From: Selenomonadaceae bacterium
GTDB lineage: Bacteria; Bacillota; Clostridia; Oscillospirales; CAG-272
Direction: 5' to 3'
Assembly: GCA_963598415.1 (NCBI GenBank)
Contig: CAVBUH010000058.1
Coordinates: 16,421 to 80,420 of the forward strand
Length of the DNA stretch: 64,000 nt
Shown one piece after another: positions 6,595 to 63,284 of the stretch. Position 1 is the stretch's first letter, and each line of letters begins with the position of its first letter. The notes below the pieces were generated by a model that ran no database searches, was not told the origin of the DNA, and saw only the letters and a program-made list of their open reading frames with translations. The position numbers and the translations under genes are program-made.

Positions 6595-6773
6595 TCGAGG
6601 CAATACCGCACAATTCCAAAAGGCAGAGATGTGCAGTCATATTTTTCATCAAACGATACCAATTAGGGGTAGAAGCGGCTCCTTTGCCGACGGAATTTTT
6701 GAAGTGTGACGGTATACGGACAAGCAGATATGCCGTTAAGGCACAAGCTGTGAACATGGCGGTGTTGCCTTAA
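6595..6773 (+). mobile_element. MITE-like palindromic repeat, family 1, subfamily 2 (copy A)
   Basis: 179 bp. Ends GAGGCAATACCGC ... GCGGTGTTGCCTTAA, with the shared core (TTTTTCATCAAACGATACCAATTAGGGG ... TTTGCCGACGGAATTTTTGAAG). Starts 11 nt after the ispE stop. Confidence 0.85.
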
Positions 6774-6969
6774 TCATATTCCTGCGCTTTTTGCCTTGCC
6801 GTTCAAAAAATCATCTCGGAAATCTGCATAGTCGATTGATTAGCCATTCCTTAGGTCAGTATAAGAATTATCGTGATACAATTATCAACGGAAAAATATG
6901 AAAAATAATTTTTTATAATCGTTTTAAAGAAATGACAGAGGATTCCGTCCAAAAATCAATAAAAGGCGA

Positions 6970-6998
6970 GGGCTGTTTGCGGTTTGTGCAAACAGCCC
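6970..6998. terminator. Hairpin terminator candidate between convergent genes
   Basis: GGGCTGTTTGC / GCAAACAGCCC 11 bp stem with A/T-rich flanks on both sides. Confidence 0.55.
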
Positions 6999-7020
6999 AA
7001 ATATTTCGTTTTTTCAAGCG

Positions 7021-7602
7021 TTAATTCTTGTAATAGACAGTCATTGAAGTACCGATATCCTTGACCAGAATATCACGGGGCATTTTGATAAATTGAAAAG
7101 CTACATACAGATCTCCCGCCGCACCGGATATGTTTGCCGTTTGGATAAAATATATCGGCCAAAACCATAAATCAGGCAGAAATGCATTTATCAGATCGAT
7201 GATAATTCCCCATATTACCACGGGGGAAAGCGCAATGATAATGTAGCATTTTTTATTATAATACGCAGAGCTTCCCGCATATGCATAGAGACCGGTGAAG
7301 CCGTACTTCGGCCGGGTTTTGCTGTATATCCGCATAAAAACACCATGAACCAACTCGTGAAGGATAATATAAACGACTACTCCCGCAAGCATAACTGCAA
7401 ATCTTAAAATATATTCGGACAGACCGCGGGACATGTCAAACAGATAGCTGAGCGGCAGGTGAAGATGACCGAAAGCGAGCATAACAGCGAAAATAAAAAA
7501 CGAAAAGGCGTTCACAAGCAAAGCCGTTTTTTTATCATTTTGAAGGTCAAGCTTAAATATTTCCGAATAATTATCAGGAAGCGATAGAGTGTTTTTTATC
7601 AT
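7021..7602 (-). CDS. DUF3267 family putative zinc-peptidase membrane protein
   Basis: HELVHG motif embedded in a TM-rich protein. Start set to ATG 7602 (MIKNTLSLPDNY), preceded by AAGGAG. The longer ORF to 7716 would overlap the HIT gene. Confidence 0.7.
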   Translation of the reverse strand: MIKNTLSLPDNYSEIFKLDLQNDKKTALLVNAFSFFIFAVMLAFGHLHLPLSYLFDMSRGLSEYILRFAVMLAGVVVYIILHELVHGVFMRIYSKTRPKYGFTGLYAYAGSSAYYNKKCYIIIALSPVVIWGIIIDLINAFLPDLWFWPIYFIQTANISGAAGDLYVAFQFIKMPRDILVKDIGTSMTVYYKN

Positions 7603-7646
7603 AAATAAGGGCTCCTTGGTTGTTATGCTTTGAAACGGATGTTTGC

Positions 7647-7982
7647 TCAGTCCATTTTTTCCGAAAGCTTTTTTCCTCCGAGAATGTGGAAATGCAGGTG
7701 CTTTACACTTTGACACCCATCTTCTCCGACATTTGTGATTACACGATAGCCGTTTTCTATTCCGGATGCTTTAGCAATTTCCGGTATCCTCTCAAAAATG
7801 TAGGAAACCACGGAACTGTTTTGTGGCGATACTTCATCTACTGAACTGATATGTTCTTTTGGGATTATCAGAATGTGAACCGGCGCCTGTGGATTTATGT
7901 CGAGGAAAGCAAGGATACGCTCATCCTCGTACACTTTGCTTGAGGGAATTTCTCCTGAAACAATTTTACAGAAAAGACACAT
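7647..7982 (-). CDS. HIT family (histidine triad) nucleotide-binding protein
   Basis: MCLFCKIVSGEIPS N-terminus and the histidine triad HLHFHILGG. Confidence 0.9.
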   Translation of the reverse strand: MCLFCKIVSGEIPSSKVYEDERILAFLDINPQAPVHILIIPKEHISSVDEVSPQNSSVVSYIFERIPEIAKASGIENGYRVITNVGEDGCQSVKHLHFHILGGKKLSEKMD

Positions 7983-8041
7983 TTTTTACCTCCGTCCCGA
8001 TAAAAATCGAAGAATTTGTATCGGGTATATCATTAAAAATA

Positions 8042-8070
8042 TTGACAAAAAGAGTAAGGTGCGATATAAT
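8042..8070 (+). promoter_or_regulatory. Consensus sigma-A type promoter
   Basis: TTGACA (8042-8047), 17 nt spacer, TATAAT (8065-8070), upstream of the DUF1858 gene. Confidence 0.55.
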
Positions 8071-8122
8071 GAGTACAATAATATTATAGTGAATATTTAT
8101 ATTATAGCAAATGGGAGGAAAG

Positions 8123-8329
8123 ATGTCAATGCAAATTACAAAGGATACCATAATCGGAGATATACTGGATCATGATCCCGGAACGGCTCAATTCTTTTTT
8201 GAAATAGGTATGCACTGTCTCGGCTGCCCCGCTTCAAGGGGAGAAAGCATTGAAGCAGCTTGTATGGTTCACGGAACTGATGCCGACGAACTTGTTGCCA
8301 AGATCAACGACTATCTCAGCAAAAAGTGA
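8123..8329 (+). CDS. DUF1858 domain protein (hybrid-cluster-protein-associated redox disulfide family)
   Basis: ITKDTIIGDILDHDPGTAQFFFEIGMHCLGCPASRGESIEAACMVHG matches the DUF1858 pattern with CxxC. Start is ambiguous (8111, 8123 or 8129) because GGAGG lies at 8114-8118. Confidence 0.75.
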   Translation: MSMQITKDTIIGDILDHDPGTAQFFFEIGMHCLGCPASRGESIEAACMVHGTDADELVAKINDYLSKK

Positions 8330-8382
8330 AACTGCGGGCTGCCGTGACGGCGATGACTTTATTCCCGTGAATCTGTATGGAA

Positions 8383-8417
8383 GGGCTGTCGCGTTGAAAC
8401 GCGGCAGCCCTTTGATT
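8383..8417 (+). terminator. Intrinsic terminator candidate
   Basis: GGGCTGTCGCG / CGCGGCAGCCC stem followed by TTTGATT. Confidence 0.5.
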
Positions 8418-9123
8418 GAGGAATATGAAAGAAATAAAAAATAACGGTGCGCGTCTTTCGACGATAGCGCGGCTCGTGAGAGAGAATGTCTTGCTCATCG
8501 ATGTGGGAAGCGATCATGGATATTTGCCGATATCTCTTGTATCAAGCGGAAGAATCAAACGGGCGATTGCTTCGGATGTTGTACCGGGACCGCTTTCAAA
8601 AGCGAAAAAAAACATATCGGCTGCCGGGCTTGAAGCTGAAATAGCGGTTGTTCTGTCGGATGGGCTTGATTTGATAGAAGTTGAATCTCCTTCTGATATT
8701 GTGATTGCCGGAATGGGTGGAGAACTGATCTCAAAAATTATCGATGCAAAACCGCAGGTGAAAAATGCGGATATACATTTGATTCTCCAGCCGATGACAA
8801 AGGCTGAATATTTAAGACGTTATCTTTGTGAAAACGGTTTTGAAATTATCTCGGAGCTTCTTGCCTGTGAAGGGAAAATATATCAGATTATTTCCTGTCT
8901 ATACACAGGAAGGTCATATGCACTCACCGAATGTGAGCTTGCTGTAGGAAAAAAATCTGCAAGGAATGAGGACGCACTTTTTCGCCGTTTTGTCAGCGGA
9001 AAACTCTCTTCGCTGAAAATCGCAGCAGAGGGAAAAGGGATGGCGGCGATAGATTGTACGGAAGAAATAAAATTGATATCGGCTCTTGAAGAGCTTTTGG
9101 ATTCTGAAAGTAAGGAATGTTGA
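8416..9123 (+). CDS. trmK: tRNA (adenine22-N1)-methyltransferase
   Basis: LIDVGSDHGYLPISL and VIAGMGGELI motifs. Conserved pairing with the downstream Nif3-like gene. Alternative start at ATG 8425. Confidence 0.85.
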   Translation: MRNMKEIKNNGARLSTIARLVRENVLLIDVGSDHGYLPISLVSSGRIKRAIASDVVPGPLSKAKKNISAAGLEAEIAVVLSDGLDLIEVESPSDIVIAGMGGELISKIIDAKPQVKNADIHLILQPMTKAEYLRRYLCENGFEIISELLACEGKIYQIISCLYTGRSYALTECELAVGKKSARNEDALFRRFVSGKLSSLKIAAEGKGMAAIDCTEEIKLISALEELLDSESKEC

Positions 9124-9127
9124 TTAT

Positions 9128-9874
9128 ATGAAGGTTAAGGATTTATATGATAGGCTTGATGAAACGATTCCTTCATCGCTTTCCTGCGAATGGGATAATG
9201 ACGGACTTATGTGCTGTCCTGATCCCGACCGAGAAGTGCGCAGGGTTTTGCTCACATTGGATGTCACACAGGCAGCGGCGGAATATGCGGAAGAAAAAGG
9301 ATTTGACGCCATAATATCTCATCATCCGCTTATTTTCCGCCCCTTACCGTCTTTGATATCCCGTAAGTTGATCAGACTCGTCCGAAATAACATAACTGTA
9401 ATGTCCTTTCACACACGTCTCGACAAGCTTGACAACGGTGTGAATCGCGTTCTTGCGGAAAAAATCGGTATTACAGATGCGTCGGCTTTTTCCGAGGAGG
9501 GAATCGGATTGATAGGAACTCTTGAAGAACCTATTATGCCTGAACTTTTTTGCGAGAGAATAAAAAAATCGCTTGGCTGTCCTGTTCTTGAACTTGTGAC
9601 TGCTGGATTGCCATGCAGTCGAATTGCTGTTGTGGGAGGAGATGGCAAAGATTGCCTGTCCGATGCTGTAAGAGCGGGTTGTGATACTTATCTCACGGGA
9701 AGTATGAGCTATAACAGTTTGATTGATGCGTCAGAGATCGGAATTAATATCATTGCCGCCGGTCATTTTTTCACCGAAAATCCCGTTCTTGAAAAAATCG
9801 AACAAATCATTAAAACAATAGATCGAGGAATCCGATGTGAGCTTTTTGACTGCAATGTTGTAAAAATGGTTTGA
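9128..9874 (+). CDS. Nif3-like dinuclear metal centre protein (YqfO/GTP cyclohydrolase 1 type 2 homolog)
   Basis: MKVKDLYDRLDE..., AIISHHPLIF and IAAGHFFTE motifs. Start moved to ATG 9128. Confidence 0.85.
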   Translation: MKVKDLYDRLDETIPSSLSCEWDNDGLMCCPDPDREVRRVLLTLDVTQAAAEYAEEKGFDAIISHHPLIFRPLPSLISRKLIRLVRNNITVMSFHTRLDKLDNGVNRVLAEKIGITDASAFSEEGIGLIGTLEEPIMPELFCERIKKSLGCPVLELVTAGLPCSRIAVVGGDGKDCLSDAVRAGCDTYLTGSMSYNSLIDASEIGINIIAAGHFFTENPVLEKIEQIIKTIDRGIRCELFDCNVVKMV

Positions 9875-9911
9875 CATACATATATGTTGATAAAGGGGAA
9901 ATAAAAGAAAT

Positions 9912-11666
9912 ATGAGAAAAACGAAAATTATCTGTACTCTCGGTCCCGCTTCCGATTCCGAGGAGGTTATAAGAGAGCTTATACTTGCCGGAATGGATGT
10001 TGCCAGAATTAATTTTTCACACGGAGAGTACAGTGAGCACAAGCATAAAGCCGATATAATAAAAAAGCTGCGCGCCGAGCTGAATCGGCATACCGCGCTT
10101 TTGCTTGATACAAAAGGTCCCGAAATCCGTCTTAAAACATTTGAAAAAGGAAAGGTTACGCTTAAAGCCGGAGACAGCTTTTCACTTTATATGGATGATC
10201 GGCAGGGAAATGAAAAGGGCGTTTCCATTACCTATACGGGATTATGGAGAGATGTTTCTTTCGGAAGCAGAATCCTGATTGATGACGGGCTTATAGAGCT
10301 TACTGTGGAAAGTGTTTCAGAAAAGGAAATCAAGTGCTGCGTAAAAAACGGAGGTTCTCTATCGAATCGCAAGGGCATAAATGTTCCCGGTGTTCGCTTA
10401 TCCATTCCTTTTTTGAGTGAAAAGGACAAGAGTGATATAGCTTTTGGGGTAAAAGAGGATTTTGATTTTATTGCCGCCTCCTTTACGCAGTGCGCCGATG
10501 ATATAAGAAAGATACGGGATGAGCTTGATAAAAACGGAAGTCACGGGATACGGATTATCGCTAAGATAGAAAATTCGACCGGAGTCGATAATATCGATGA
10601 GATTCTCAACGAGGCGGACGGTATCATGGTTGCAAGGGGAGATCTTGGCGCGGAGGTGCCTATGGAGAATATTCCCGTTATTCAGAAACAGTTGATTTCA
10701 AAGTGCTATAATGCCGGGAAGCAGGTTATTACCGCAACGCAGATGCTGGAGAGCATGACGCACAATCCGCGTCCTACAAGAGCGGAAATCACGGATGTTG
10801 CAAATGCGATTTACGACGGAACGAGCGCTACCATGCTTTCCGGCGAGACAGCAATGGGAGATTATCCGATTGAAGCGGTAAAGCGAATGGCTACAATTGC
10901 TTTGCGCACGGAAAGCGATATTGACTACAAGAAAAGATTCTTTGATTGCCGTTTCGGCGGTTTCGGAAACGTTACGGATGCCATATCTCATGCGACCTGT
11001 ACTACGGCGCATGATCTCGGTGCAAAGGCTATTATAACGGTAACTACCTCTGGATTCACAGCGCGTCTGCTCAGTCGCTTCCGTCCGCAGACCGATATCA
11101 TTGCTTGCTCTCCCGATCCGAAAGCGTGCAGACATATGAATATGTCGTGGGGGGTAATTCCGCTTCTTATAGATAAAGTGGAGGAAAGCTCCGAAAAGCT
11201 TCTCTCGATTGCTGTCGATAAGGTGTATGAGGCAGGTTATGTGAATTACGGCGATCTTGTGGTGGTTACTGCGGGACTTCCGCTCGGAATACCGGGAACC
11301 ACGAATATGCTCAAGGTTCAAATGGTAGGCGATGTTCTTCTTGCCGGAAAAGGAATTGTAGAGGAATCGGTTTGCGGTCAGCTCTGCGTCTGTGCCAATG
11401 ATGAGGAAGCACTTGAAAAAGGGAAAAACGGTGATGTTATTGTAATTCCATCCGCTTCTGACAGAATAATCAGTGTGCTTCGTCACGCGAGCGCTATCAT
11501 CTGTGAACGGGGCGGAGAGGATTCATATGCTGCGATAGTGGGAAAGACGCTGAATATTCCGGTGATAATTGCCGAAAACGCTACCAAGATATTGAAGTCG
11601 GGAATTACTGTGACTGTGGACGGAAAACGCGGTATGGTATACTGTAATGAACGGAAACCGGATTAA
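9912..11666 (+). CDS. pyk: Pyruvate kinase with C-terminal PEP-utilizer mobile domain
   Basis: MRKTKIICTLGPAS, MVARGDLG and the catalytic core, plus a ~100 aa C-terminal extension as in the Bacillus-type enzyme. Confidence 0.95.
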   Translation: MRKTKIICTLGPASDSEEVIRELILAGMDVARINFSHGEYSEHKHKADIIKKLRAELNRHTALLLDTKGPEIRLKTFEKGKVTLKAGDSFSLYMDDRQGNEKGVSITYTGLWRDVSFGSRILIDDGLIELTVESVSEKEIKCCVKNGGSLSNRKGINVPGVRLSIPFLSEKDKSDIAFGVKEDFDFIAASFTQCADDIRKIRDELDKNGSHGIRIIAKIENSTGVDNIDEILNEADGIMVARGDLGAEVPMENIPVIQKQLISKCYNAGKQVITATQMLESMTHNPRPTRAEITDVANAIYDGTSATMLSGETAMGDYPIEAVKRMATIALRTESDIDYKKRFFDCRFGGFGNVTDAISHATCTTAHDLGAKAIITVTTSGFTARLLSRFRPQTDIIACSPDPKACRHMNMSWGVIPLLIDKVEESSEKLLSIAVDKVYEAGYVNYGDLVVVTAGLPLGIPGTTNMLKVQMVGDVLLAGKGIVEESVCGQLCVCANDEEALEKGKNGDVIVIPSASDRIISVLRHASAIICERGGEDSYAAIVGKTLNIPVIIAENATKILKSGITVTVDGKRGMVYCNERKPD

Positions 11667-12072
11667 TAATAGAAACTGTAACAGAATTACCGGCAACGGC
11701 GGTGAGAACGCCGCTTGCCGGTTTCTTGAAAGTACCGGTTATACTTTGATATGCCGTAATTACCGTTCGGGACATGATGAAATCGACATAATTGCGGAAA
11801 ATGAGCAATATATTATTTTTGTCGAGGTAAAAACACGCACTGAGGTGAAAAATTGTCTGTATGGAAGACCGTCATCGGCTGTGGATGCGAAAAAAAGAAA
11901 ATGCCTTGCCAGAGCGGCAGAAGCTTATATAAAAAATACCCATGCTTCAAAGTTTTACCGTTTTGACGTAATTGAGGTGCTTGTTTCCTCTGATTCCGTT
12001 ACCGGCAGGGGAAGCTACAAAATAAATCATATGAAGGGCGTGTTCGGTGCCTCCGGAAAAATATGGATATAA
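11647..12072 (+). CDS. YraN family (UPF0102) endonuclease
   Basis: GENAACRFLESTGYTLICRNYR...DIIAENEQYIIFVEVKTR is the typical YraN core. Overlaps the pyk 3' end by 20 nt. Confidence 0.8.
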   Translation: MNGNRINNRNCNRITGNGGENAACRFLESTGYTLICRNYRSGHDEIDIIAENEQYIIFVEVKTRTEVKNCLYGRPSSAVDAKKRKCLARAAEAYIKNTHASKFYRFDVIEVLVSSDSVTGRGSYKINHMKGVFGASGKIWI

Positions 12073-12085
12073 ATGAGGAAATACA

Positions 12086-27531: not shown

Positions 27532-27850
27532 TTATAGCCTCTTATAAAAATCTTAATATGGATATTTTGTTCGATCACTGTTTTATTATTTACTTTAAGC
27601 TTATAAATATGTGTCCTTTTTACCTAAAAAGGATAGAAAATGAGAGAAGTTTTTCATCTCCGGATTAAGGAATCACAGAATAAATCGTCAACGTATTTTT
27701 CCGGCAGATTTTTTGCCTTCCGTTCAAAAAATCATCTTGGGAATCTGCTGTTTGATTTATTTAGTGATTTCTTAAAGGCAGAACGAGTCTGTGAAGATTT
27801 CCTGATGGGGGATATTCTGCGTTCTTTTCTGTTGCCTCGTTTCTTTTTAT

Positions 27851-28030
27851 TTAAGGCAACACCGCCGGGTGCACGGTTAATGCCTTTGTTGCACATTTGC
27901 TTGCGTCTTTTCCGTCAACCTTCACCAATTTCATCGGCAGAGGAGTCACGCTTTCCTCCTCAATTGGTATTGTCTGACGAAAAATCCGGCGGCGCAACTG
28001 TACAACAATCATTGTGCGGTATTACCTTAA
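27851..28030 (-). mobile_element. MITE-like palindromic repeat, family 1, subfamily 1 (copy B)
   Basis: 180 bp, TTAAGGCAACACCGCC ... GTGCGGTATTACCTTAA, with the core CCTCCTCAATTGGTATTGTCTGACGAAAAATCC. Confidence 0.9.
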
Positions 28031-28101
28031 TTTTGAACAGCGATTTTGCTATGCAAAATTCGGGAAAGGAAGCTTTCGATTTATGAAGGCTATAGTCTAA
28101 A

Positions 28102-29648: not shown

Positions 29649-30000
29649 CTGTTCTCCTTGCAAATATAATTATGTTAATATGACGGAAGAAAAGGAAAGA
29701 TACTGACCCTTATCGGATTACAGAATTTATGGTGTACTTTACGATACATGGATATATCCTCCTTATATATTATTCTATCATAATTATATACTTATTTTTG
29801 TTTATTGTCAACGCTTATTTTGGCTAATAATCTTAGAGATATTAATAGAACAAGTTTAAAATTGGCATTTATTACATAAAAAGAGAAATACAACATGACT
29901 TATTTTCTTTTTTTGAGAGGAAATATTGCCTATAAATAGTGTTTATCAAGCGAAAAAAACGGGTATATTTCCGAACTTAAAGGACATATTCAGAATATTA

Positions 30001-33909: not shown

Positions 33910-35610
33910 ATGATTTACAGAGAAGAGCATCCAAAACCCCAATTTGAACGCAGAGATTGGATAAATTTGAACGGCGAATGGCAGTTTGAAATTGACCGTG
34001 GAAACAGCGGAGAAGAGAGAAAAATATACGCAGACGACATCACGTTGAAAAATGTGATTGTGGTGCCGTTTTGTCCGCAGAGTGAGCTTTCGGGAATAGA
34101 AGATAAGGATTTCATGAGTTCCGTATGGTATAAGCGAACCTTTGAACTTACGGAAGATCAGCTTTTTGGTCGTGTATATGCACACTTTGGCGCGGTGGAT
34201 TACCTTGCGACAGTATATGTAAACGGTCAGAAATGCGGTTCTCACAAAGGAGGATATGTTTCCTTCAGAGTTGATATTACCGATGCGGTACATGCCGGAA
34301 TGAATACAGTAACGGTGCATGCCGAAGACGATGAAAGAAATCGATTGATCCCAAGGGGAAAGCAGTGTGAGGGTTATTATTCGTGCGGATGCGATTATAC
34401 CCGTACCACAGGTATCTGGCAAACCGTTTGGCTTGAATTTGTTCCTGAAACTCACATTGAAAAAGTAAAGTATTATCCCTCTGTAAGCGCCAACACGCTT
34501 ACGCTGAGAGCAGAGGTCAAGGGTGCGGCACTTTTTACGGCAGAGGTTTTCTATGAAGGAAAACCGATGGGGAAGGCTTCTTCCGTTTCTTGCGGCGAGC
34601 AGATTTCTTTGACAATAACGCTTTCCGAAAAACATCTTTGGGAGGTCGGTAAAGGGGGACTGTATGATATTGTCCTTACCTATGGAGAAGATAGGGTAAA
34701 GAGCTATTTCGGTCTGAGAAGCATTGATTATCGTGACTATAAGTTCTTTCTTAACGGAAGATCGGTTTTTCAGCGTCTTATACTCGATCAAGGATTTTAT
34801 CCCGACGGCATTTATACTGCGCCGTCTGACAAGGAGCTTGAGGCTGATATTGACCGTTCAATGGCGATGGGCTTCAACGGCGCAAGACTTCATGAGAAGG
34901 TATTTGAAGAGAGATTCCTTTATCATGCCGATCGTAAGGGATATCTTGTATGGGGAGAATTTCCGAACTGGGGACTTGATCACTCTTATGCTGATTCCAT
35001 ATACGGAATACTCCCCGAATGGCTTGAAGAAGTTGACCGCGACTTCAATCATCCGTCCATTGTAGGGTGGTGTCCTTTCAACGAGACTTGGGATCAGAAG
35101 GGCAGAAAGCAATACGACGATTGTTTGGCACTTGTTTATAAGGCTACCAAGGCTGCAGATCCGACACGTCCCTGTATTGATACAAGCGGAAACTATCATG
35201 TCGTTACCGATATTTATGATGTGCATAACTACGAACAGAATCCGGAAATTTTGGCAGCACACTACGAAAAGCTTGCTCAAGACGGCACACATACCGATCA
35301 CTGTGGTCATCGTCAGCACTATGACGGAAAATTGCCTTTCTTCGTCAGCGAGTATGGAGGTATACGGTGGTCGAATAAAGGAGGATGGGGATACGGAAAC
35401 GCACCTCAAACAGAGGAGGAATTTCTTACCCGGCTTAAAGGGCTTACCGACGTGCTTCTTGATAACCCGAGAATGTTTGCTCTTTGCTATACACAGCTTA
35501 CCGATGTGGAGCAGGAACAGAACGGACTTTATACTTACGACAGAAAGGAAAAATTCCCCGCGGAAATAATTCATCCGATTTTCTCAAGAAAAGCTAAAAT
35601 TGAGGATTAA
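33910..35610 (+). CDS. Glycoside hydrolase family 2 protein
   Basis: GH2 sugar-binding and TIM-barrel pattern (LNGEWQF, VYVNGQKCGSHKGGY, GFNGARLHEK, WCPFNE...). The stop TAA abuts repeat copy C. Confidence 0.85.
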   Translation: MIYREEHPKPQFERRDWINLNGEWQFEIDRGNSGEERKIYADDITLKNVIVVPFCPQSELSGIEDKDFMSSVWYKRTFELTEDQLFGRVYAHFGAVDYLATVYVNGQKCGSHKGGYVSFRVDITDAVHAGMNTVTVHAEDDERNRLIPRGKQCEGYYSCGCDYTRTTGIWQTVWLEFVPETHIEKVKYYPSVSANTLTLRAEVKGAALFTAEVFYEGKPMGKASSVSCGEQISLTITLSEKHLWEVGKGGLYDIVLTYGEDRVKSYFGLRSIDYRDYKFFLNGRSVFQRLILDQGFYPDGIYTAPSDKELEADIDRSMAMGFNGARLHEKVFEERFLYHADRKGYLVWGEFPNWGLDHSYADSIYGILPEWLEEVDRDFNHPSIVGWCPFNETWDQKGRKQYDDCLALVYKATKAADPTRPCIDTSGNYHVVTDIYDVHNYEQNPEILAAHYEKLAQDGTHTDHCGHRQHYDGKLPFFVSEYGGIRWSNKGGWGYGNAPQTEEEFLTRLKGLTDVLLDNPRMFALCYTQLTDVEQEQNGLYTYDRKEKFPAEIIHPIFSRKAKIED

Positions 35611-35790
35611 TTAAGGCAATACCGCACAATGATTGTTGAGCAGTAGCGCCGCCGGATTTTTCGTCAGACGATATAAATTGAGGAAGCAAGAGTAACTCCT
35701 CTGTCGACGAAATTTGTGAAGTATGACGGAAAAGCTGCAAGCAAATGTGCAATAAAGGCGTTAGCTGTGTACCCGGCGGTATTGCCTTCA
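35611..35790 (+). mobile_element. MITE-like palindromic repeat, family 1, subfamily 1 (copy C)
   Basis: 180 bp, TTAAGGCAATACCGCACAATGATTG ... CCCGGCGGTATTGCCTTCA. Begins at the nucleotide after the GH2 stop codon. Confidence 0.9.
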
Positions 35791-36118: not shown

Positions 36119-36162
36119 TTTAAGGGAATACCGCACAATGATTATTGCACAGATGCGCCGCA
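36119..36162 (+). repeat. Solo left-end fragment of the family 1 repeat (copy D)
   Basis: TTAAGGGAATACCGCACAATGATTATTGCACAGATGCGCCGC matches the first ~44 nt of subfamily 1, then diverges. Confidence 0.7.
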
Positions 36163-36197
36163 AAAATAGTGCGATATTTCCTTAACACTGTACCTGA

Positions 36198-39369: not shown

Positions 39370-39549
39370 TTAAGGTAACACCGTATAATTCACTGCTTGC
39401 GCCTTGACAGCATATCTGCTTGTCCATTTTCTGTTACACTTCACAAATTTTGTCGGCTGAGGGAACCGTTCTTGTTTCCTCAATTGGTATCGTTGATAAA
39501 AAATATGCCTGCGCATTTGTACCGTCAGAACCCAGCGGCATTGCCTTAA
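39370..39549 (-). mobile_element. MITE-like palindromic repeat, family 1, subfamily 2 (copy E)
   Basis: 180 bp, TTAAGGTAACACCG ... CAGCGGCATTGCCTTAA, with the core CACTTCACAAATTTTGTCGG...CCTCAATTGGTATCG. Confidence 0.88.
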
Positions 39550-41138: not shown

Positions 41139-41215
41139 TGGCTGGGATGGCGCGACTCGAACGCGCGACTGCAAGAGTCAAAGTCTTGTGCCTTAACCGA
41201 CTTGGCGACATCCCA
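41139..41215 (-). tRNA. tRNA-Gln (anticodon UUG), CCA encoded
   Basis: Hand-folded cloverleaf: acceptor UGGGAUG/CAUCCCA, D stem GCC/GGC, anticodon stem CAAGA/UCUUG with loop CUUUGAC, T arm GCGCG-UUCGAGU-CGCGC, discriminator G plus CCA. 77 nt. Confidence 0.9.
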
Positions 41216-47328: not shown

Positions 47329-47649
47329 TTAAGGCAATACCGCCGGGTTCACGGCTTTCTTTAAGGATGCATCTTCAGGGCAATTTTCCGCCGTGCTTCA
47401 GGGTACCTCTAAAAATTCACGTCTCAAATCCGGTTCGATCCGGGTTCCGTCGTTCGTTTAAAAAATTCTTGGCAGATGGATACGCTGTCTGCGAAATTTT
47501 TGTTTGGACTGACGATTGCCGTTTGTGAATAAGAGATACCCTTCACAAATTTTGCCGACAGAGAAGTCGCTCTTGCCTCCTCTATTGGTATTGTCTGACG
47601 AAAAATCCAACTGCGTATCTGTACCGTCGAGCCCGGCGGATTGCCTTAC
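47329..47649 (-). mobile_element. MITE-like palindromic repeat, family 1, subfamily 2 (copy F), interrupted by a nested element
   Basis: Ends TTAAGGCAATACCGCCGGGTTCACGG ... CCCGGCGGATTGCCTTAC. 321 bp long because of a 141 bp insertion. Confidence 0.88.
47401..47541. mobile_element. Nested 141 bp MITE-like element, family 2
   Basis: Termini GGGTACCTCTAAAAATTCAC ... GTGAATAAGAGATACCC form an imperfect inverted repeat. Flanked by a direct TTCA (47397-47400 and 47542-47545), which is single in uninterrupted family 1 copies. Confidence 0.7.
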
Positions 47650-48967: not shown

Positions 48968-49145
48968 TTAAGGCAATACCGCACAATGATTGTTGTGCAG
49001 TTGCGCCGCCAGATTTTTCGTCAGACAATACCAATTGAGGAGGCAAGAGTGCTCCTCTGCCGACGAACTTGTGAAGTATGACGGGAAAGATGCAAGCAAA
49101 TGCGAAGCATAGGCGTTTGCCGTGCACTCAGCGGTATTGTCTTAA
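48968..49145 (+). mobile_element. MITE-like palindromic repeat, family 1, subfamily 1 (copy G)
   Basis: 178 bp, TTAAGGCAATACCGCACAATGATTG ... CAGCGGTATTGTCTTAA. Ends 33 nt before the start codon at 49179. Confidence 0.9.
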
Positions 49146-54966: not shown

Positions 54967-54972
54967 AAAGGT

Positions 54973-55150
54973 TTAAGGCAATACTGCTGGGTTCACGGCT
55001 TGCGCCTTGATGGCATATCCGCTTGTTCATTTCTCGCCACACTTCACAAATTTTGTCGGCAGAGGAGCTAATCTTGCCTTTTCAATTTGTATCGTTTGAC
55101 AACACATGACTGCGCATCTGTACCATCAGAACCCGGCGGTATTACCTTAA
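54973..55150 (-). mobile_element. MITE-like palindromic repeat, family 1, subfamily 2 (copy H)
   Basis: 178 bp, TTAAGGCAATACTGCTGGGTTCACGG ... GAACCCGGCGGTATTACCTTAA. Starts 6 nt after the GDPD stop. Confidence 0.9.
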
Positions 55151-55364
55151 ACTTAGGTGTTGAGATTTAATATTCATTGAACAGATATTCGGAAATCAAG
55201 GCGTCAGTAGCTTTTGGCGCCTTTTTTATATAGGGACTTAATTATATATTCGGGCAACAAATTAAGAATTCTATGTCACAATATGGAGTTGTTTATTAAA
55301 TGAAAATATGATAAAATTATTTTGGATATATATGCAAAAGATGCAGAGGAAAGGATGAGACCAA

Positions 55365-56165
55365 ATGATACAATTAACTCCACCAATGGGCTGGAATTCA
55401 TGGAATACTTTCGGAAAAAATATAAGCGAAGTAACGTTGAGGGAGGCAGCTGATGCACTCGTTAAAACAGGACTTCGTGATTCCGGATATCAATATTTTG
55501 TAATTGACGATACCTGGGCATTGCGTGAACGCGGTAAAGACGGAAGGCTGATTCCGAATCCCGATAAATTTCCTAATGGAATTAAAGCTGTGAGCGATTA
55601 TGTTCATGATAAGGGATTAAAATTCGGTATATATTCGTGTGCGGGAACCATGACCTGCGCTCAATATCCCGGAAGCTATGAATACGAGTTTCTTGATGCC
55701 GAGACTTTTGCAGAATGGGGAGTTGATTTCCTTAAATACGATTATTGTTTTAAGCCGACATTTGAGAGAGGGGAGCTTCTATATCGCAGAATGGGGCTTG
55801 CTCTTGCTAACTGCGGACGGGATATTCTCTTTTCCGCTTGCTCATGGGGAAATGACGATACAAAATCCTGGATAAAGACAACAGGCGCTCATATGTGGCG
55901 TTCGACGCATGACGTTTTCGATTCGTGGGAATCTATAAAAATGAGAGCCAAGGAACAGCTTGATATACAAAAATACAATGGTTTAGGCTGTTTTAATGAC
56001 ATGGATATGCTTGTTGTCGGAATGAACGGAAAGGGAAATGTCGGTTTAACGCCGAGTTCTTTTGTTCAGTACCGTACACATTTTGCTTTGTGGGCACTGC
56101 TCGGTTCACCGCTTATGATAGGATGTGATATCCGTAATGCAGACGCCGATGTAATAGATTGCTGA
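55365..56165 (+). pseudogene. Alpha-galactosidase (GH27), apparently 3'-truncated
   Basis: LTPPMGWNSWN, LKYDYC (nucleophile region) and MWRSTHDV (acid/base region) are present. The ORF stops right after PLMIGCDIRN, so the usual C-terminal beta-sandwich domain is absent. Confidence 0.6.
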
Positions 56166-56190
56166 ATTTAATGCGGAGGGGAATATTCTT

Positions 56191-56817
56191 GTGGCAAAGA
56201 ACAATGGAGCGCCTTCGTATCTCATATATAAGATATGTGCGGATGAGGGAAAGCTTCTTTCTTCGCTGACAATTAAATCATATGCAAGTGTAAATGATTG
56301 GGAGGTGGACGGTGCCCCGCTTGCCGGAAATGAATTCGGTATCTATGTAAAATCAACCGATGATTTTGATTTTGAAAGCGATACACCTGCTGACGGTGCA
56401 AGTGGTATGGTCGGAAAGAAAAATCACACATGGAAGCTTGATGAATATGTAAATGGTAAAAGTGAAATATATGTCTGTATCTATTTTCTAAATAATAGCA
56501 GTTTTATTGATTGGGTACGGTTTTATTCTTTTGATTTTTCCGCAGCCGAAAAAATAAATGCTCCTGCAACAAGTTCTTCCGATACAGAGTCACAACCGGA
56601 GAGCACCACGTCGATGGGTTCCGGAACAGAAACCGATAATAACGCTTCGATTATATCGGGAACGAACGATGATTCTACAGATACAAGCGACATTATTGAT
56701 CCTGAGGAGAAGAATACCAATTTAATCGCAATTACTTTGATTGCTGTAGCGACAATTGCAGCTGTCATCGTAGTTGTGGCTATGATAAAAGTTGCAAAGT
56801 CTAATAAAACAGATTAA
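56191..56817 (+). CDS. Hypothetical protein with S/T/D-rich linker and C-terminal TM anchor
   Basis: GTG-start ORF. C-terminal LIAITLIAVATIAAVIVVVAMI anchor. Its stop codon TAA lies inside the TTAA terminus of repeat copy I. Confidence 0.55.
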   Translation: MAKNNGAPSYLIYKICADEGKLLSSLTIKSYASVNDWEVDGAPLAGNEFGIYVKSTDDFDFESDTPADGASGMVGKKNHTWKLDEYVNGKSEIYVCIYFLNNSSFIDWVRFYSFDFSAAEKINAPATSSSDTESQPESTTSMGSGTETDNNASIISGTNDDSTDTSDIIDPEEKNTNLIAITLIAVATIAAVIVVVAMIKVAKSNKTD

Positions 56818-56923
56818 GACAATACCGTACCATGATTGTTGTGCAGTTGCGCCGCTGGATTTTTCGTCAGACAATACAAGTTGAGGAGGCAAGAGTGACT
56901 CTTCTGCCGACGAAATTTGTGAA
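56509..56923 (+). repeat. 415 bp direct repeat, copy 1 (gene 3' end plus the first 110 bp of a family 1 repeat)
   Basis: Differs from 58894-59308 at only 3 positions (56518, 56519, 56902). Confidence 0.95.
56814..56923 (+). mobile_element. MITE-like repeat, family 1, subfamily 1 (copy I), truncated by an insertion
   Basis: The first 110 bp are identical, bar one base, to copy J. Broken after ...CGAAATTTGTGAA. Confidence 0.9.
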
Positions 56924-58121
56924 GGGATCTCTAAGGAATCACTGAATAAATCGCCAGCACCACATCCCTAAGAGTACCGCTTATGTTTCGGCAGATAATT
57001 GTAGGGAAGTGCGTTTTCTACTCAAAGTCAACGGTTTCATTTTTTTGCACTATTATCTACAATAGACATGTTTGAAAAAACGTTTGACCACAGATACTAC
57101 GTATTGTCTGTAATAATGTTGAAAATCTTCCTAATACAAGCCGTCTGTAAGGTTGCCGTTGTGCCTATCTCATAACGCTTGTGACGACGATCTATGCCTC
57201 ATAATAAGATAAGGGCCATAAAGAAATAGCGTATAAGCAAGCTGATTCCAAGGAGCTCTAATTTACCGTCGAACAGGTTTTGTAAAACTGCCACAAGGGG
57301 AAACGAACATCTCTACGAGGCAAGTAGAAGATTTTTTCGGGATTACGATTCTTTTAAGGTATATGCAATGTAGGAATCAAAGTCGCTGTTTCCTTCCGAA
57401 TTCTTTGTACCACTTTTTAATTTCTGCTCTGTACTCAAGACTGCGGACAAGGGAATTTGTAGCCTTTTAATTTTTTTAAGATGTCCATATTTTTATACTA
57501 AAATAAATAGAAGCGCTCTACCAAGGCTGTATTACAGCAGGTAAAGCGCTTTTGTTGTTCTATTTATTCTATTTTTTTATTTTTCTCGTGCCCACAGCCT
57601 CTTTATCCTTGTGTTGTCATAGCTTATGATATGTCTCTGTAGAGGAAGGAAAGCTCCCTTTGCAATTCCTGTCATAAAGCCGTACATAAGCTCCTCGGGA
57701 ATAAGATGGGTGACGGAAATGGCGTCAATGCTTTCTCTAAGAGAAGGATTTATTCTTGTGCCGTCGAAAAAAGACTATTTACTCTCTGTCTTACCATTGC
57801 CAGACATCTTGCCAAAGCAGTAAAATATCTTGCCCCTCGTCTTAAGACAGAAATCAAAAATTATCTCCTTCTCGCTATTGTTGAGAGTATTCATGTTTGC
57901 GAGAGGGGCAGGATGATGACGCTGTCTTGATTGGCCTTCTGGCAATGTAATTGACCATCTTATTACAAATACTCCCAAATATTGCAAATTTCCAATAAAA
58001 AAACTAATTTTAATCAATATTTTGAGCCCTATGCTCTATCCAAAAAAAGAATGCAGGTCAATAAAAATTATCTGTTCTCTCTACGAACATGAGAATTTTT
58101 CGAGAAATTCACATTTTTCTC

Positions 58122-58150
58122 TTGACAAGCTTCGTGCATTGATGTAAAAT
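58122..58150 (+). promoter_or_regulatory. Sigma-A type promoter candidate for the transaldolase-family gene
   Basis: TTGACA (58122-58127), 17 nt spacer, TAAAAT (58145-58150). Confidence 0.5.
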
Positions 58151-58202
58151 GTAGCCTGTTATAACAAATTCACTTAATGTTTCGCGCGATTTTGGAGAAC
58201 TC

Positions 58203-58850
58203 ATGAAAATTTTTATTGATACAGCAAATATCTCAGAAATCAAGGCTGCTTGGGATTTGGGAGTCATTAGTGGCGTTACGACAAATCCCACTTTGATTGC
58301 CAAGGAAGGCCGGAACTTCAAAGAGGTAGTCAAGGAAATTACTTCAATCGTTGATGGACCTATTTCCGCCGAGGTCATCTCGCTGCAACATGAAAAAATG
58401 GTTGAGGAAGCCCTTGAGCTTTCTGCTATCCATCCCAATATAGTAATCAAAATTCCTATGTGTACCGAAGGTTTAAAAGCGGTTAAGATTTTATCATCCA
58501 AAGGGATTCGCACCAATGTCACCCTAATCTTTTCTGCCGCTCAAGCCTTCCTCGCTTCTCGTGCGGGAGCCTCCTATGTCAGTCCATTTCTTGGCAGATT
58601 AGACGATATCGGGAGTGAGGGAATGACACTAATCAAGGACATCGTTGAAATCTTCCGTCATCAAGAAACCAAGACGGAAATAATCGGAGCAAGTATTCGT
58701 CATCCTATCCATGTCATTGAAGCCGCTAAATCAGGTTGTGATATAGCTACTATCCCCTATAAAGTCATCACGCAAATGGTTGGTCATCCTCTAACATCTA
58801 ATGGCATTGAAAAATTTCTCAAGGATTGGGAAACGCTTCAAAATAGCTGA
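58203..58850 (+). CDS. Transaldolase family protein, short form (fructose-6-phosphate aldolase/TalC-like)
   Basis: [22 protein letters not shown]...[13 protein letters not shown] (Schiff-base Lys region)...[11 protein letters not shown]. 215 aa, typical of the short subfamily. Confidence 0.9.
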
Positions 58851-58893
58851 AACTCTATTTTTATCCCGCAAACACGAATTTATTTTCAAAGAA

Positions 58894-59202
58894 GATTGGG
58901 TATTGTTTTATTCTTTTGATTTTTCCGCAGCCGAAAAAATAAATGCTCCTGCAACAAGTTCTTCCGATACAGAGTCACAACCGGAGAGCACCACGTCGAT
59001 GGGTTCCGGAACAGAAACCGATAATAACGCTTCGATTATATCGGGAACGAACGATGATTCTACAGATACAAGCGACATTATTGATCCTGAGGAGAAGAAT
59101 ACCAATTTAATCGCAATTACTTTGATTGCTGTAGCGACAATTGCAGCTGTCATCGTAGTTGTGGCTATGATAAAAGTTGCAAAGTCTAATAAAACAGATT
59201 AA
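58894..59202 (+). pseudogene. Duplicated 3' fragment of the 56191-56817 gene
   Basis: Encodes the same last ~100 residues as the gene at 56191-56817. The upstream part (58801-58893) shows only diverged similarity and there is no credible start. Confidence 0.6.
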
Positions 59203-59308
59203 GACAATACCGTACCATGATTGTTGTGCAGTTGCGCCGCTGGATTTTTCGTCAGACAATACAAGTTGAGGAGGCAAGAGTGACTCCTCTGCCGACGAAA
59301 TTTGTGAA
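58894..59308 (+). repeat. 415 bp direct repeat, copy 2
   Basis: See copy 1. The identical antisense ORFs in the supplied track (56523-56768 and 58908-59153) are consistent with this. Confidence 0.95.
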
Positions 59309-59378
59309 ATATGACGGAAAAGATGCAAGCAAATGCGCAATAAAGGCGTTAGCTATGTACCCGGCGGTATTGCCTTAA
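59199..59378 (+). mobile_element. MITE-like palindromic repeat, family 1, subfamily 1 (copy J), intact
   Basis: 180 bp, TTAAGACAATACCGTACC ... CCCGGCGGTATTGCCTTAA. Confidence 0.9.
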
Positions 59379-59680
59379 CTTTAGTCATAAAAACCGCCGA
59401 CCAAACCGATGGCTTGTCCGGTGCTATAAAGGTAAGCTCCCGGTAGGGTGAAAGCCGTCGAAAAGCTTGATGCCTCTGCTACAAATGGAGGTTTTCACAT
59501 TTATGAGGATAGTCTCAGGTTTTGACTTGGAAGCAGATCAATCTGTAATATCTGATATCGAAAAGAAATGGAGAAAAATCGACAGAAGTCGGGAGCGTTT
59601 GGAGAAAATATAGCATTTATGAATAAGAAACGAAGTTTCTGATGACAATAAATAAAAATAAATTGCCGGAGGAAATTGGT

Positions 59681-59899
59681 ATGGATAATAAAAACGGTTT
59701 TGTGATTAACGACCGTGATCGTATTTTAAGAGCATGGCAAAACTCTACGGAACTGGTCAGAGACTATCAGAATTATGCAAATGAGATGCAGAAAAGCAAT
59801 AGGGAGCTGGCGGTGCTTTTTGCAGAATATGCAGAGGATGAGGCAATTCATGCCTCAAGGCTGCTTGAACTTCTTCAAGGCTTCGAAAGTCGTTCATAA
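59681..59899 (+). CDS. Hypothetical small protein (possibly a ferritin-like helical protein)
   Basis: GGAGG precedes ATG 59681. Contains the helical segment LAVLFAEYAEDEAIHASRLLELL. Weak family inference. Confidence 0.45.
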   Translation: MDNKNGFVINDRDRILRAWQNSTELVRDYQNYANEMQKSNRELAVLFAEYAEDEAIHASRLLELLQGFESRS

Positions 59900-59902
59900 A
59901 AG

Positions 59903-59943
59903 CAACGGGCTGACGGTGAAAATACCGCAGCCCGTTGTTTTTT
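59903..59943. terminator. Bidirectional intrinsic terminator
   Basis: 10 bp stem CAACGGGCTG / CAGCCCGTTG followed by TTTTTT. Lies between convergent genes. Confidence 0.8.
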
Positions 59944-59955
59944 ACTTATTAAAGA

Positions 59956-61173
59956 TTAAAAGTTTACTTCCGTATCATAATAGCAACATTTCAGAAGCTT
60001 TTCCATTTCTTCTTGAGAAGGAATTCTCGGGTTAGAACCGGTGCAAGCGTCTCCTATGGCGTTTTTTGCAATTTCCGGCAGACGTGAAAGGAAGACATCC
60101 TCCGGTACAAAACCGTTTTCGGTAGGATAGCTGTCAGCGCCGTAATTCTTTATGCAATGCGGGATGTTAAGGTCATCGTTCATTTTGCGCAGATAGGCAA
60201 TAAGGAGATTGACTTTTTCATCATCGTTTTTTCCGCCAAGTCCCATGAAATCCGCTATTACGCCATAGCGTTTTTTAGCCGTTTCGTTCTTTGCATTAAA
60301 TGCAATTACTTTGGGAAGATACATCGCATTGGCAGCGCCGTGTATAATATGCGCTCCGTAATCATCGAAAGCGGCTCCGGTCTTATGAGCCATAGAGTGA
60401 ACGATTCCGAGCAGCGCGTTTGAGAATGCCATTCCGGCGAGGCATTGGGCATTATGCATGGAATCACGTTTTGACATATCTCCGTTATAGGAATCAACAA
60501 GATCGTTCTCAATCATGCGTATAGCGTGAAGTGCAAGGGGATCCGTGAAATCACAGTTAGCGGTCGAAACATAAGCCTCAATTGCATGTGTCATAGCATC
60601 CATACCTGTATGAGCTACAAGCTTCTTTGGCATGGTTTCAGCCAAGTCGGGGTCAACGATTGCCACGTCGGGAGTAATCTCGAAATCCGCGATAGGATAT
60701 TTAATGCCCTTGGCATAATCGGTGATAATGGAGAAAGCTGTTACCTCGGTAGCAGTACCGGATGTAGAAGAAATTGCGCAGAAATGTGCTTTCTTACGGA
60801 GCTTGGGAAGACCGAATACTTTGCACATATCCTCAAAGGTAACCTCCGGATATTCGTATTTTATCCACATGGCTTTAGCGGCATCAATCGGAGATCCGCC
60901 GCCCATTGCGATAATCCAATCGGGTTGGAATTCAATCATTTTTTCCGCGCCCTTCATAACTGTCTCGACAGAGGGATCTGGTTCGATTCCTTCAATGAGC
61001 GCAATTTCCATGCCGGCTTCTTTCAGATAAGCTTCCGCCTTATCCAAAAAACCGAATTTTCTCATAGAGCTTCCGCCCACGCAGATGATCGCGCGCTTTC
61101 CTTCAAACGTTTTAAGAGCCTCCAGTGCTCCCTTTCCATGATACAAATCACGGGGGAGAGTAAATCTTGCCAT
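59956..61173 (-). CDS. Iron-containing alcohol dehydrogenase
   Basis: GGGSPIDAAKAM plus the Fe-ADH histidine motifs (HTGMDAMTHAIEAY, VHSMAHKTGA). Start set to ATG 61173 behind AAGGAGG. Confidence 0.9.
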   Translation of the reverse strand: MARFTLPRDLYHGKGALEALKTFEGKRAIICVGGSSMRKFGFLDKAEAYLKEAGMEIALIEGIEPDPSVETVMKGAEKMIEFQPDWIIAMGGGSPIDAAKAMWIKYEYPEVTFEDMCKVFGLPKLRKKAHFCAISSTSGTATEVTAFSIITDYAKGIKYPIADFEITPDVAIVDPDLAETMPKKLVAHTGMDAMTHAIEAYVSTANCDFTDPLALHAIRMIENDLVDSYNGDMSKRDSMHNAQCLAGMAFSNALLGIVHSMAHKTGAAFDDYGAHIIHGAANAMYLPKVIAFNAKNETAKKRYGVIADFMGLGGKNDDEKVNLLIAYLRKMNDDLNIPHCIKNYGADSYPTENGFVPEDVFLSRLPEIAKNAIGDACTGSNPRIPSQEEMEKLLKCCYYDTEVNF

Positions 61174-61357
61174 ATCGTATGACCTCCTTGAATTTTTACT
61201 GCGGAGTATGCTTAATGTATTATGCCCCGTCCGAGGTAGATTATATACCATTTTTTTCATTGTGTCAATACATCTGATAAAATTTTATCGATAATTTTTT
61301 ATTTATTTACATTCAAGACATATATGTTGTGCTTTAGTAATGAATATTATAACAGTG

Positions 61358-61386
61358 TTGACAAAAATATTCATTTATGCTACAAT
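61358..61386 (+). promoter_or_regulatory. Sigma-A type promoter candidate
   Basis: TTGACA (61358-61363), 17 nt spacer, TACAAT (61381-61386). Confidence 0.5.
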
Positions 61387-61526
61387 GAAAATGTCGAATG
61401 TGGTATTCAATATTCTTTGAGAAAAAGTTTTGTATAGTCTATTGTCGTTTTGAAGGTTTATAAAAATTACGTGTTCATCTGTAAAATAATGCTGAATGCC
61501 TGTGAATTGGCGGAGGAATATGATCA

Positions 61527-62741
61527 ATGAAAAAGTTATATTTTATTTTAATCATTTCATCGCTTTTATTTATCCTTTTCGGATGCATTTCCAAAAAGAA
61601 TCGAATTCCTGCCGAAACTGTACTGAAGCTTGGCGCAGAAAAAAAACCGGTTACGGTATCCATATCATCGCTTCCAGAGGGATATTCCACAGTTTTAGAA
61701 GATAAAGCAGAAATCAAAAAGCTGTATGAAACCCTCATGACTTTGAAGTTGACAAAAGCTGAGAGCGCTGAAGTGAATCAGATGACGGGAATGACTTGGG
61801 TAATCGTTCTGTCCGATTCTTCCGGAAAGCAAAAAGTCGTTTATTTTTTCGGAAAATACATTCGTACCGATGAAGATAAACAATGGTATGAGATGCTGAG
61901 CGAAGACAGAATAATGCTTGACAGAATTTTTGGGGAATATACTGCCGATTCCGGAACGGCGATCTTGCAGTATTGCGGATCGGAAGCGGTGACGGAAGAA
62001 GGAGACAGCGGTTATTATACAGGAGGTATCTCTCTCGGAAAAGATGATATTGAAATGCTTGTACGACTGTTTTCCTGACAGACGGAGTCAGAGCTTTGGG
62101 ATTGCGGATTTAATTATACTTTAAAGCTGGGCGATAAGGTATATCGAATTCAAACCCGATTCCGCGACAGGGAATGTTATTATGAGCATGAGGGAAAAGG
62201 GTTTATTGTGACGGGAGGCGACGCCAATACTCTTATTTCTCTTTGTCAAGCATATACAGCGGTGCAGAAAATGAATACATCGCTTCCAAAGGAAATGCCG
62301 GAGGATTTTTCTGTTCGTTTTGAAATGTGGATTATCGAAGGGCGGAAGAATATTCTTGATACCCGCGAGGGCTTTATTCAAAAGGATCTTGTCGCTGATG
62401 GAATTGCAGCAGCAGGAATCGATGCTGAGAATCTTCCGATGGAGGAGATATATTCAAAGCTGAAGTTGCTTTGTATGGATATGATAACGAAGGAGATGAC
62501 CTCTGCGCAGTTGACAAATGATAACACAATGGTAGATATTTCTCCGCTTATTCGCTATTCAATTCAATTTACGGCAAGCGGGAAAGCATATGCGGTATTC
62601 GGTGATGAGACTGCGCGAGCGTATATAGCTGAGAATGACGAAGCAGCACGGTTTATTATGGCTGCGGACTATTTATCTAATGTGATGATTTACTCTGATG
62701 AATATAAATCGTTGCCTGAAGCAGAGGGCGGATATGACTAA
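61527..62741 (+). pseudogene. Lipoprotein ORF interrupted by a single in-frame TGA (segments 61527-62078 and 62079-62741)
   Basis: Signal peptide with lipobox (LFILFGC). After TGA at 62076-62078, the same frame stays open for 129 nt up to the GTG at 62208 used by the ORF track, then continues to 62741. Confidence 0.5.
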
Positions 62742-62932
62742 TGAAAAATTTTCTGTCTGATGCCGGTCTGCATATTGGACTCGGAGGGCTGTTCTGTCAT
62801 TAAAAAATGCGTGAAGCATCAGTTATATCTGGCTTGCGGAAACAGATCCGGTAAGTTTTGCGCATCTTCTCGATGTAAAATTTGGAGAGCAAGTGCTTTT
62901 GCAGGAAGATGCTTGAATGCTTTCAGAAATAT

Positions 62933-63284
62933 TTAAGGCAATACCGCACAATTACCAACTAACGCCTTGACAGCACAGCTACTTGCCTATTTTCCGACAT
63001 TCGTCACAAAAAATAACGCAATAGGAGCCGCTATTGCCTATATTTTTGTGTTGGGCTGTTGCGTTAAGCAATAAGCCTGGCATTTTCCCGGTCGTGAAAA
63101 TGCCGAATCGGGTGTTTTTGACTGTATTTTCTTTGGATTATTATGAATTTAAATGGTCAAAATTGCGGATTGCATCCGCAAAACCCGACTTCGTGGGGTA
63201 GTCGCACGTTAGTGCGACAGCCCCTTGAATCCCAAAAACTATGACGGCGCATCTGCGCTGTCATAACCCGGCGGTATTACCTCA
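62933..63284 (-). mobile_element. MITE-like palindromic repeat, family 1, subfamily 2 (copy K), with ~170 bp of extra internal sequence
   Basis: Ends TTAAGGCAATACCGCACAATT ... AACCCGGCGGTATTACCTCA. The extra sequence at about 63053-63224 contains strong hairpins. Confidence 0.8.

Follow-up and report, generated by a model that had tools for sequence, protein, structure and literature searches.

What is the palindromic sequence of about 180 bp that recurs between the genes of contig CAVBUH010000058.1, and why does it keep so long a hairpin? We analyzed a stretch of 64,000 bp of this contig (positions 16,421 to 80,420, referred to as the window), in which an earlier note, made from the letters alone, had listed eleven copies and likened them to MITEs (miniature transposable elements with inverted repeats). 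With a probability of roughly 90%, the repeats are indeed a non-coding mobile element, a bacterial MITE with the ends of an insertion sequence (IS) of the IS5 group. Termini in common with the IS, 4-bp duplications and occurrence in many genomes all support this nature. As a kind of element it is ordinary. Its long hairpin, on the other hand, is unusually well conserved. A literature search on the terminal sequence and on MITEs in Ruminococcus turned up no description of the family, which is apparently unnamed so far and newly recognized.

Ends, flanking duplications and a probable IS5-type partner

The element proper spans GGCAATACCGC...GCGGTATTGCC and is about 172 bp long (GGCAATACCGCACAA...TTGTGCGGT(A/G)TTGCC), with terminal inverted repeats of 15–19 bp; the TTAA outside is flank. 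In the alignment, the inverted repeats (GGCAATACCGCACAA / TTGTGCGGTATTGCC) pair columns 3–15 with columns 173–185 in 96.6% of cells. TTAA stands on both sides in 44 of 75 MITE copies, and eight more have matching flanks of another 4-mer, among them TTAG (twice) and TATA, TAAA, CTAT, CAAG and TTAT (once each). Because the flank pairs match, including those that are not TTAA, we consider the four flanking bases of the MITE to be its target duplication. The earlier note had suggested a duplication of TA or TTAA; TTAA is the usual sequence, but the duplication is 4 bp rather than TA, and other matching 4-mers occur.

A partner for these ends was found outside the window. Contig L011 (3598–4734) contains an element of 1137 bp with the same termini and a frameshifted transposase gene. 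The repaired product leads to thousands of intact relatives of 325 amino acids, which carry the Pfam domains DUF772 and DDE_Tnp_1 and match the NCBIfam model of the IS5 family (NF033581) at 327.6 bits, with a cut-off of 140. The intact IS, found in other gut bacteria, is 1130 bp long and runs from GGCAATACCGCACAAAAC to GCGGTGTTGCC. Its copies are flanked by CTAA/CTAA at two sites (L130, L131) and by TTAA/TTAA at three (L132, L135, L125), so the four bases outside GGCAAT...ATTGCC are a target duplication here as well. Both sequences fit the YTAR target that is the rule for IS5 in ISfinder descriptions; a few of the MITE flanks (TATA, TAAA, CTAT, CAAG, TTAT) do not. As the earlier note had it, there is no autonomous partner within the window, where no transposase gene is present.

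Two further observations concern this IS. One copy (L136, 2566–2630) has a 54-bp tandem duplication of the right end, which leaves two right termini in a row. A possible assignment of the MITE + strand to the sense strand of the IS, which rested on T versus C at position 6 of the termini, was dropped, as IS variants are not uniform there.

Does the element encode anything of its own? No ORF (open reading frame) is conserved; the longest have 24–53 codons, on either strand and in differing frames. One small ORF in subfamily A (defined below), with GAGGAGG followed 6 nt on by GTG, was rejected, since its start is absent or its frame broken in other copies. A scan for a promoter or an intrinsic terminator gave no consistent consensus match inside the copies. 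At gathering thresholds, Rfam matches only a tRNA in the window, and two copies searched at E-values up to 10 gave chance-level matches only; the repeats thus match no curated covariance model of a structured RNA.

The properties found are those of a MITE: small size and many copies, inverted termini, a duplication of fixed length, no coding capacity, and an autonomous IS with the same ends. They differ from those of the palindrome-associated elements (PATEs) derived from IS200/IS605, which have subterminal hairpins and lack both inverted termini and duplications; both features are present here. They differ also from repetitive extragenic palindromes (REPs) and the mosaic elements built of them (BIMEs), in having duplications and in having termini that agree with those of a DDE-type IS; no search for a RAYT gene was made.

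Copies in the window and in related genomes

The window has 19 occurrences of the terminal 15-mer TTAAGGCAATACCGC with up to two mismatches; in shuffled sequences the average is 0.10, and the count never exceeds one. A profile derived from the seven full copies and applied to the window with nhmmer, together with repeat finding, recovers every copy that had been listed before and nothing else notable. The repeat is therefore real, and the length of 178–180 bp given for full copies stands. In total, the window has seven full copies, one truncated copy, two with an altered core and one mini copy of 66 bp. The orientation of the element can be defined, and copies occur in both, as had been claimed.

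6595..6773, + strand: full copy, subfamily B; nhmmer E = 1e-48; left flank decayed (TCGA), right flank TTAA
27851..28030, − strand: full copy, subfamily A; TTAA/TTAA flanks; between divergent genes
35611..35790, + strand: full copy, subfamily A; begins immediately past the stop codon of the GH2 glycosidase gene (33910–35610)
36120..36185, no assigned orientation: mini copy of 66 bp; both termini, TTAA/TTAA flanks; just 3' of pflA
39370..39549, − strand: full copy, subfamily B; 143 bp upstream of pflB (formate C-acetyltransferase)
47329..47648, − strand: composite copy; family termini around a 135-bp insert (47401–47535)
48968..49145, + strand: full copy, subfamily A; upstream of the DUF1934 gene
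54973..55150, − strand: full copy, subfamily B; antisense to the GDPD gene, between its stop codon and a terminator-like hairpin (55198–55223)
56814..56925, + strand: truncated copy, model positions 1–112; end of a 417-bp duplicate of 58894–59310
59199..59378, + strand: full copy, subfamily A; stop codon of the upstream ORF inside the TTAA flank
62933..63284, − strand: 352-bp variant; family termini, with about 190 bp of unrelated sequence (63040–63232) in place of part of the core

Pairwise identity among the window copies ranges from 66% to 91%. The identity matrix bears out the two subfamilies proposed earlier: A (35611, 59199, 27851, 48968) with 86–91% identity among its members, and B (54973, 6595, 39370) with 72–77%. 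Two entries of the earlier list change their meaning. The copy read as a left end only (36119–36162) is in fact the mini element with both termini. The copy at 56814 is truncated, as described, but is not an independent insertion, because it is part of a 417-bp segmental duplication: the repeats 56509–56925 and 58894–59310 are 99% identical, enclose a segment of 1968 bp and end inside a MITE copy.

The copies are mostly intergenic, though not without exception, as had been thought; some overlap stop codons by 3–4 nt, and a 148-amino-acid ORF (27640–28086) runs across the copy at 27851. Public assemblies annotate this ORF as a gene; neither Pfam nor NCBIfam gives a match, and it is probably an artefact caused by open frames in the element. 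As for the altered cores, the 135-bp insert of the composite copy weakly resembles the core of another variant of the family. The idea that the inserts of the two altered copies form another repeat family was rejected, since both are unique sequence.

Is the occupancy of these sites variable? In contigs of the same species (99.3–100% identity) the window copies are fixed. Contigs L139 and L140, from a more divergent strain, contain an extra full copy (L139, 9398–9576) that is absent from the window; the variable stretch around it (window 29673–29904; L139 9305–10064) is about 530 bp longer than in the window and rearranged. In the sister species represented by L238 (approximately 94–96% nucleotide identity), the copies at 48968 and 54973 are in common with the window. 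At the site of 47329, L238 has the identical TTAA and flanks that are about 95% identical, and a 38-bp mini of another subtype. More distant relatives (L239–L243) have no copies in 5–22 kb. In one of them (L241, GH2 protein 82% identical), the spacer between the GH2 gene and pflA is 60 bp long and has no copy, whereas that of the window is 587 bp long and has two.

The family extends well beyond this species. When species-representative genomes were scanned for the 15-mer, at least 114 loci were listed, and most of the matches listed belong to Ruminococcus, Ruminococcaceae, Oscillospiraceae, Acutalibacteraceae and related genomes of the gut and the rumen. On these loci the profile finds at least 56 copies or fragments, often at contig ends. 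Overall, sizes range from about 40 to 350 bp, and paired ends in other genomes span 41 to 303 bp. The smallest forms in other genomes (33–57 bp), which are common, consist of two termini plus a short loop. No family match was found in loci of other taxa that contain PflA, 555 kb in all; these come from a metagenome PflA scan aimed at empty sites, in which the closest PflA relative has 63% identity, and serve as a negative control only.

We asked whether the repeats could instead be non-transposable, that is, REP-like palindromes of the host or a family of structured RNA genes that has its ends in common with the IS by chance. Short, dense, intergenic hairpins are what one would expect in either case. 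However, termini of 15–19 bp in common with an IS5-type IS, matching 4-bp flanks of variable sequence, lineage-dependent occupancy and the lack of an Rfam match make such an origin highly improbable. The earlier note had itself named three outcomes that would speak against a mobile element, namely a hit to a known structured RNA, a scan without further copies, and invariable presence. The Rfam search gave no match, copies were found in many genomes, and occupancy differs between strains and related species (L139/L140, L238, L241).

We therefore return to the MITE with IS5-group ends. The 325-amino-acid DDE transposase, encoded elsewhere by the 1130-bp IS, would bind the ends of the element, excise it and insert it into a 4-bp target, which would be duplicated in the process, as is expected from the family of the enzyme. 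The preferred target would be TTAA, consistent with the rule cited above. Several points weigh against this picture. The IS and the MITE show no relatedness past approximately 19 terminal bases, so the interior of the MITE is not accounted for by the IS. Two nearly invariant boxes in this interior, TTTTTCGTCAGA and TGACGGAAAA, are not present in the IS, and the binding of the ends by a transposase does not by itself account for them. The partner is known from other genomes, and movement by an IS5-type transposase is presumed from family membership. Finally, for none of the window copies was an empty site recovered to the exact base; the sites that are polymorphic are either rearranged or taken up by another member of the family.

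A number of side observations were made on the copies and their surroundings. Beside the extra copy, L139 and L140 have the sequence GGCAATATTGCC, resembling two tips of the element fused together; its counterpart in the window, GGAAATATTGCC, differs by one base. In contig L153 (3500–3661), another upstream gene (a GH2 gene of 782 amino acids) is joined to the DUF1934 gene inside a copy matching that at 48968; the junction stems either from copies recombining with each other or from a metagenome assembly that is chimeric. Among contigs predicted to be viral or proviral, L263 has an intact IS (transposase 76% identical), and L251, L284, L288 and L310 have full-length copies of the family; phages may help to spread it.

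Within the window, the 1968-bp segment between the 417-bp repeats has one ORF of 74 amino acids and a transaldolase-like (TAL_FSA) ORF. Contig L115, of the same species, lacks the segment and one of the 417-bp repeats; five other contigs have the segment. A direct repeat of 66 nt (6788–6853 and 27709–27774, 73% identity) lies near a MITE copy at each site, in differing relative orientations, and could be another small repeat family. The melibiase-like gene at 55365–56817 consists of two ORFs (266 and 208 amino acids), while in L238 (11182–12327) it is a single gene of 381 amino acids; the homology stops at window position 56158.

The genes of the window are of an anaerobic Firmicute type; among them are those for pyruvate formate-lyase and the activase of this enzyme, EF-G, pyruvate kinase and a GH2 glycosidase. 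The G+C content is about 42%, and the GC skew is uniformly positive. A human-gut metagenome contig of 71 kb is 100% identical to the window across 20.7 kb, and the closest annotated relatives of the window proteins are in metagenome-assembled genomes of Ruminococcaceae, Oscillospiraceae or Clostridia. The only Rfam or ARAGORN match in the window is a tRNA-Gln (anticodon TTG; 41139–41215, minus strand).

The hairpin and its strand asymmetry

All full copies fold into a single long hairpin, as the earlier note had predicted for the whole unit; for the copy at 59199, the folding energy is −67.1 kcal/mol as RNA (z = −6.3) and −29.9 kcal/mol as DNA (z = −3.8). When 29 copies taken from many genomes are aligned, the consensus hairpin has 49 pairs, and compensatory changes occur at 30 of them. 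The fraction of paired cells is 92.3%, compared to 78.3% in shuffles and 35–45% when the partners are slid against each other. Compensatory cells number 192 against 63 in shuffles, and none of 500 shuffles reaches the observed pairing or compensation. Reading the alignment, we also find that only the 3' arm has a small side stem, mostly capped by G-N-N-A loops; in this stem, GGC/GCC is exchanged for GCC/GGC. Several wobble pairs are fixed. Can the pairing have arisen by repeated re-palindromization of the element? It cannot, because fixed asymmetries between the two arms persist. Selection for pairing would be the simpler reading.

The two strands are not equivalent. Of 32 copies taken from many genomes, 30 give a more stable RNA from the + strand than from the − strand, with a mean difference of 20.7 kcal/mol, and G:U outnumbers A:C by 143 to 30 at the consensus pairs. 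This asymmetry hints at selection on a single strand. Among recent departures from the group consensus on one side of a pair, G:U is seen 24 times and A:C 13 times (p-value about 0.1); the recent asymmetry is weak, and most of the overall asymmetry therefore lies at a few inherited wobble positions. Compensated double changes from the group consensus number 61, against 48 single mismatches of all kinds. Such strand-asymmetric, compensated conservation goes beyond what the earlier note had seen, as does the attribution of one "copy" to a segmental duplication.

One might speculate that the core, with its long hairpin, its fixed wobbles, the boxes TTTTTCGTCAGA and TGACGGAAAA and the 3'-arm side stem with G-N-N-A loops, is a functional single-stranded module and not filler. 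We put this forward as a tentative idea, more doubtful than probable. The module would be RNA or one DNA strand, and would be needed for the spread of the element or would act on transcripts.

In its RNA form, the proposal is that of a mobile element whose conserved core is most likely an RNA hairpin co-transcribed with its neighbors. The hairpin might act as a signal for processing or stability, or might be a regulator with a link to the transposase, with selection on the RNA of one strand. The strand difference in stability, the excess of G:U over A:C and the compensatory changes described above all agree with this, as do the side stem confined to the 3' arm and the fixed arm asymmetries, given which re-palindromization cannot account for the pairing. 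Some copies are located past a stop codon but ahead of the terminator, and so would be transcribed. There is also a precedent in the bcr1 MITE of Bacillus, which is transcribed and whose structure is kept by compensatory changes (PMC3184786). On the other hand, the orientation of copies has no significant bias with respect to flanking genes (7 sense and 5 antisense within tandem gene pairs; 23 sense and 14 antisense 3' of a gene). There is no promoter consensus inside the copies, and the weak asymmetry of recent changes is a further point against an RNA. Taken together, we view an RNA hairpin as conceivable and rather doubtful.

The state of the window copies bears on this question as well. 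Their folding energies range from −44 to −73 kcal/mol, compared to −59 to −117 kcal/mol, mostly below −85, in other genomes. The window copies are divergent, less stable, fixed within the species and partly common to a sister species; in short, they are old and decaying, which argues against a host function of the resident copies. The structure is best kept where copies look young and has decayed in the window, where no transposase is nearby. Selection therefore seems to act during propagation.

The same contrast between young and decayed copies would be expected if the hairpin were needed as DNA for mobility. Folding back of a strand, or a cruciform, would join the termini of an element that, at 172 bp, is too short to loop easily. 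The abundance of minis made of just two termini and a loop fits this. Because G:T is the cheapest mismatch in DNA, a fold of single-stranded DNA might yield the same asymmetry as an RNA. A cruciform, however, folds both strands and hence predicts no difference between G:T and A:C, and the window copies show no bias for the replication strand (five each way, the mini copy excluded). We know of no IS5-type DDE enzyme that uses single-stranded substrates. A requirement for the hairpin as DNA therefore appears unlikely to us.

For the IS5-type MITE itself, whichever molecule carries the hairpin, its maintenance across species by compensatory changes suggests that it matters for the element's own spread. 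Selection would act while the element spreads, and resident copies would decay afterwards. The copies now in the window would be passive in intergenic DNA and untranslated regions, and would act mainly as substrates for recombination; any RNA made from them would form long hairpins.

Significance and comparison with known systems

In the human gut and the rumen, Ruminococcus-like and Oscillospiraceae bacteria have this family as a very common repeat, and this matters in practice. Metagenome assemblies break at it, as many contigs end within copies; it can produce chimeric joins or real rearrangements (as in L153); and it misleads gene callers into ORFs across copies (as at 27640–28086). A named model of the family would help the annotation and strain typing of organisms that are hard to culture. 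It is also a clean case in which to ask why MITE hairpins are conserved: sequences from many species, compensatory changes, a favored strand and a known partner transposase are available together, and the requirement for the hairpin is therefore directly testable. We consider the family to be of moderate interest, for its abundance in important gut taxa and for this testable question.

Among known systems, the partner IS is closest to IS5 of Escherichia coli and its group. They have in common a transposase of approximately 325 amino acids with DUF772 and DDE_Tnp_1 domains (NF033581), a length of about 1.1 kb and a 4-bp duplication of a YTAR-type target (here CTAA, TTAA, TTAG). The termini of the partner, GGCAATACCGC..., are not those of IS5, and its transposase has less than 60% identity to the copies on proteobacterial plasmids (48% for the best, in Ralstonia). 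What the window has is a non-autonomous derivative only.

In its way of working, the element is like other hairpin MITEs. Abundant intergenic hairpin MITEs of 100–180 bp that are co-transcribed with their neighbors include Correia elements in Neisseria, ERIC/IRU in enterobacteria and RUP in pneumococcus. The target of Correia elements is TA. These families differ from the present one in termini, targets and hosts; they are set apart here by description, and no sequence relation is expected. The minis of 33–57 bp resemble the short extragenic palindromes of the REP/BIME type. The movement of REPs is attributed to RAYT tyrosine transposases, and REPs lack target duplications, whereas the minis of this family have IS5-type termini and flanking duplications of 4 bp.

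The bcr1 MITE of the Bacillus cereus group is likewise a Firmicute element of similar size (approximately 155 bp), variable between strains, with short target duplications and a hairpin kept by compensatory changes (PMC3184786, a general review). It differs from the present element in its unrelated sequence, its 5-bp duplications and its hosts, and no IS5-type partner is implied for it. Among the systems compared, bcr1 is the closest precedent for a structure that is kept by compensatory changes.

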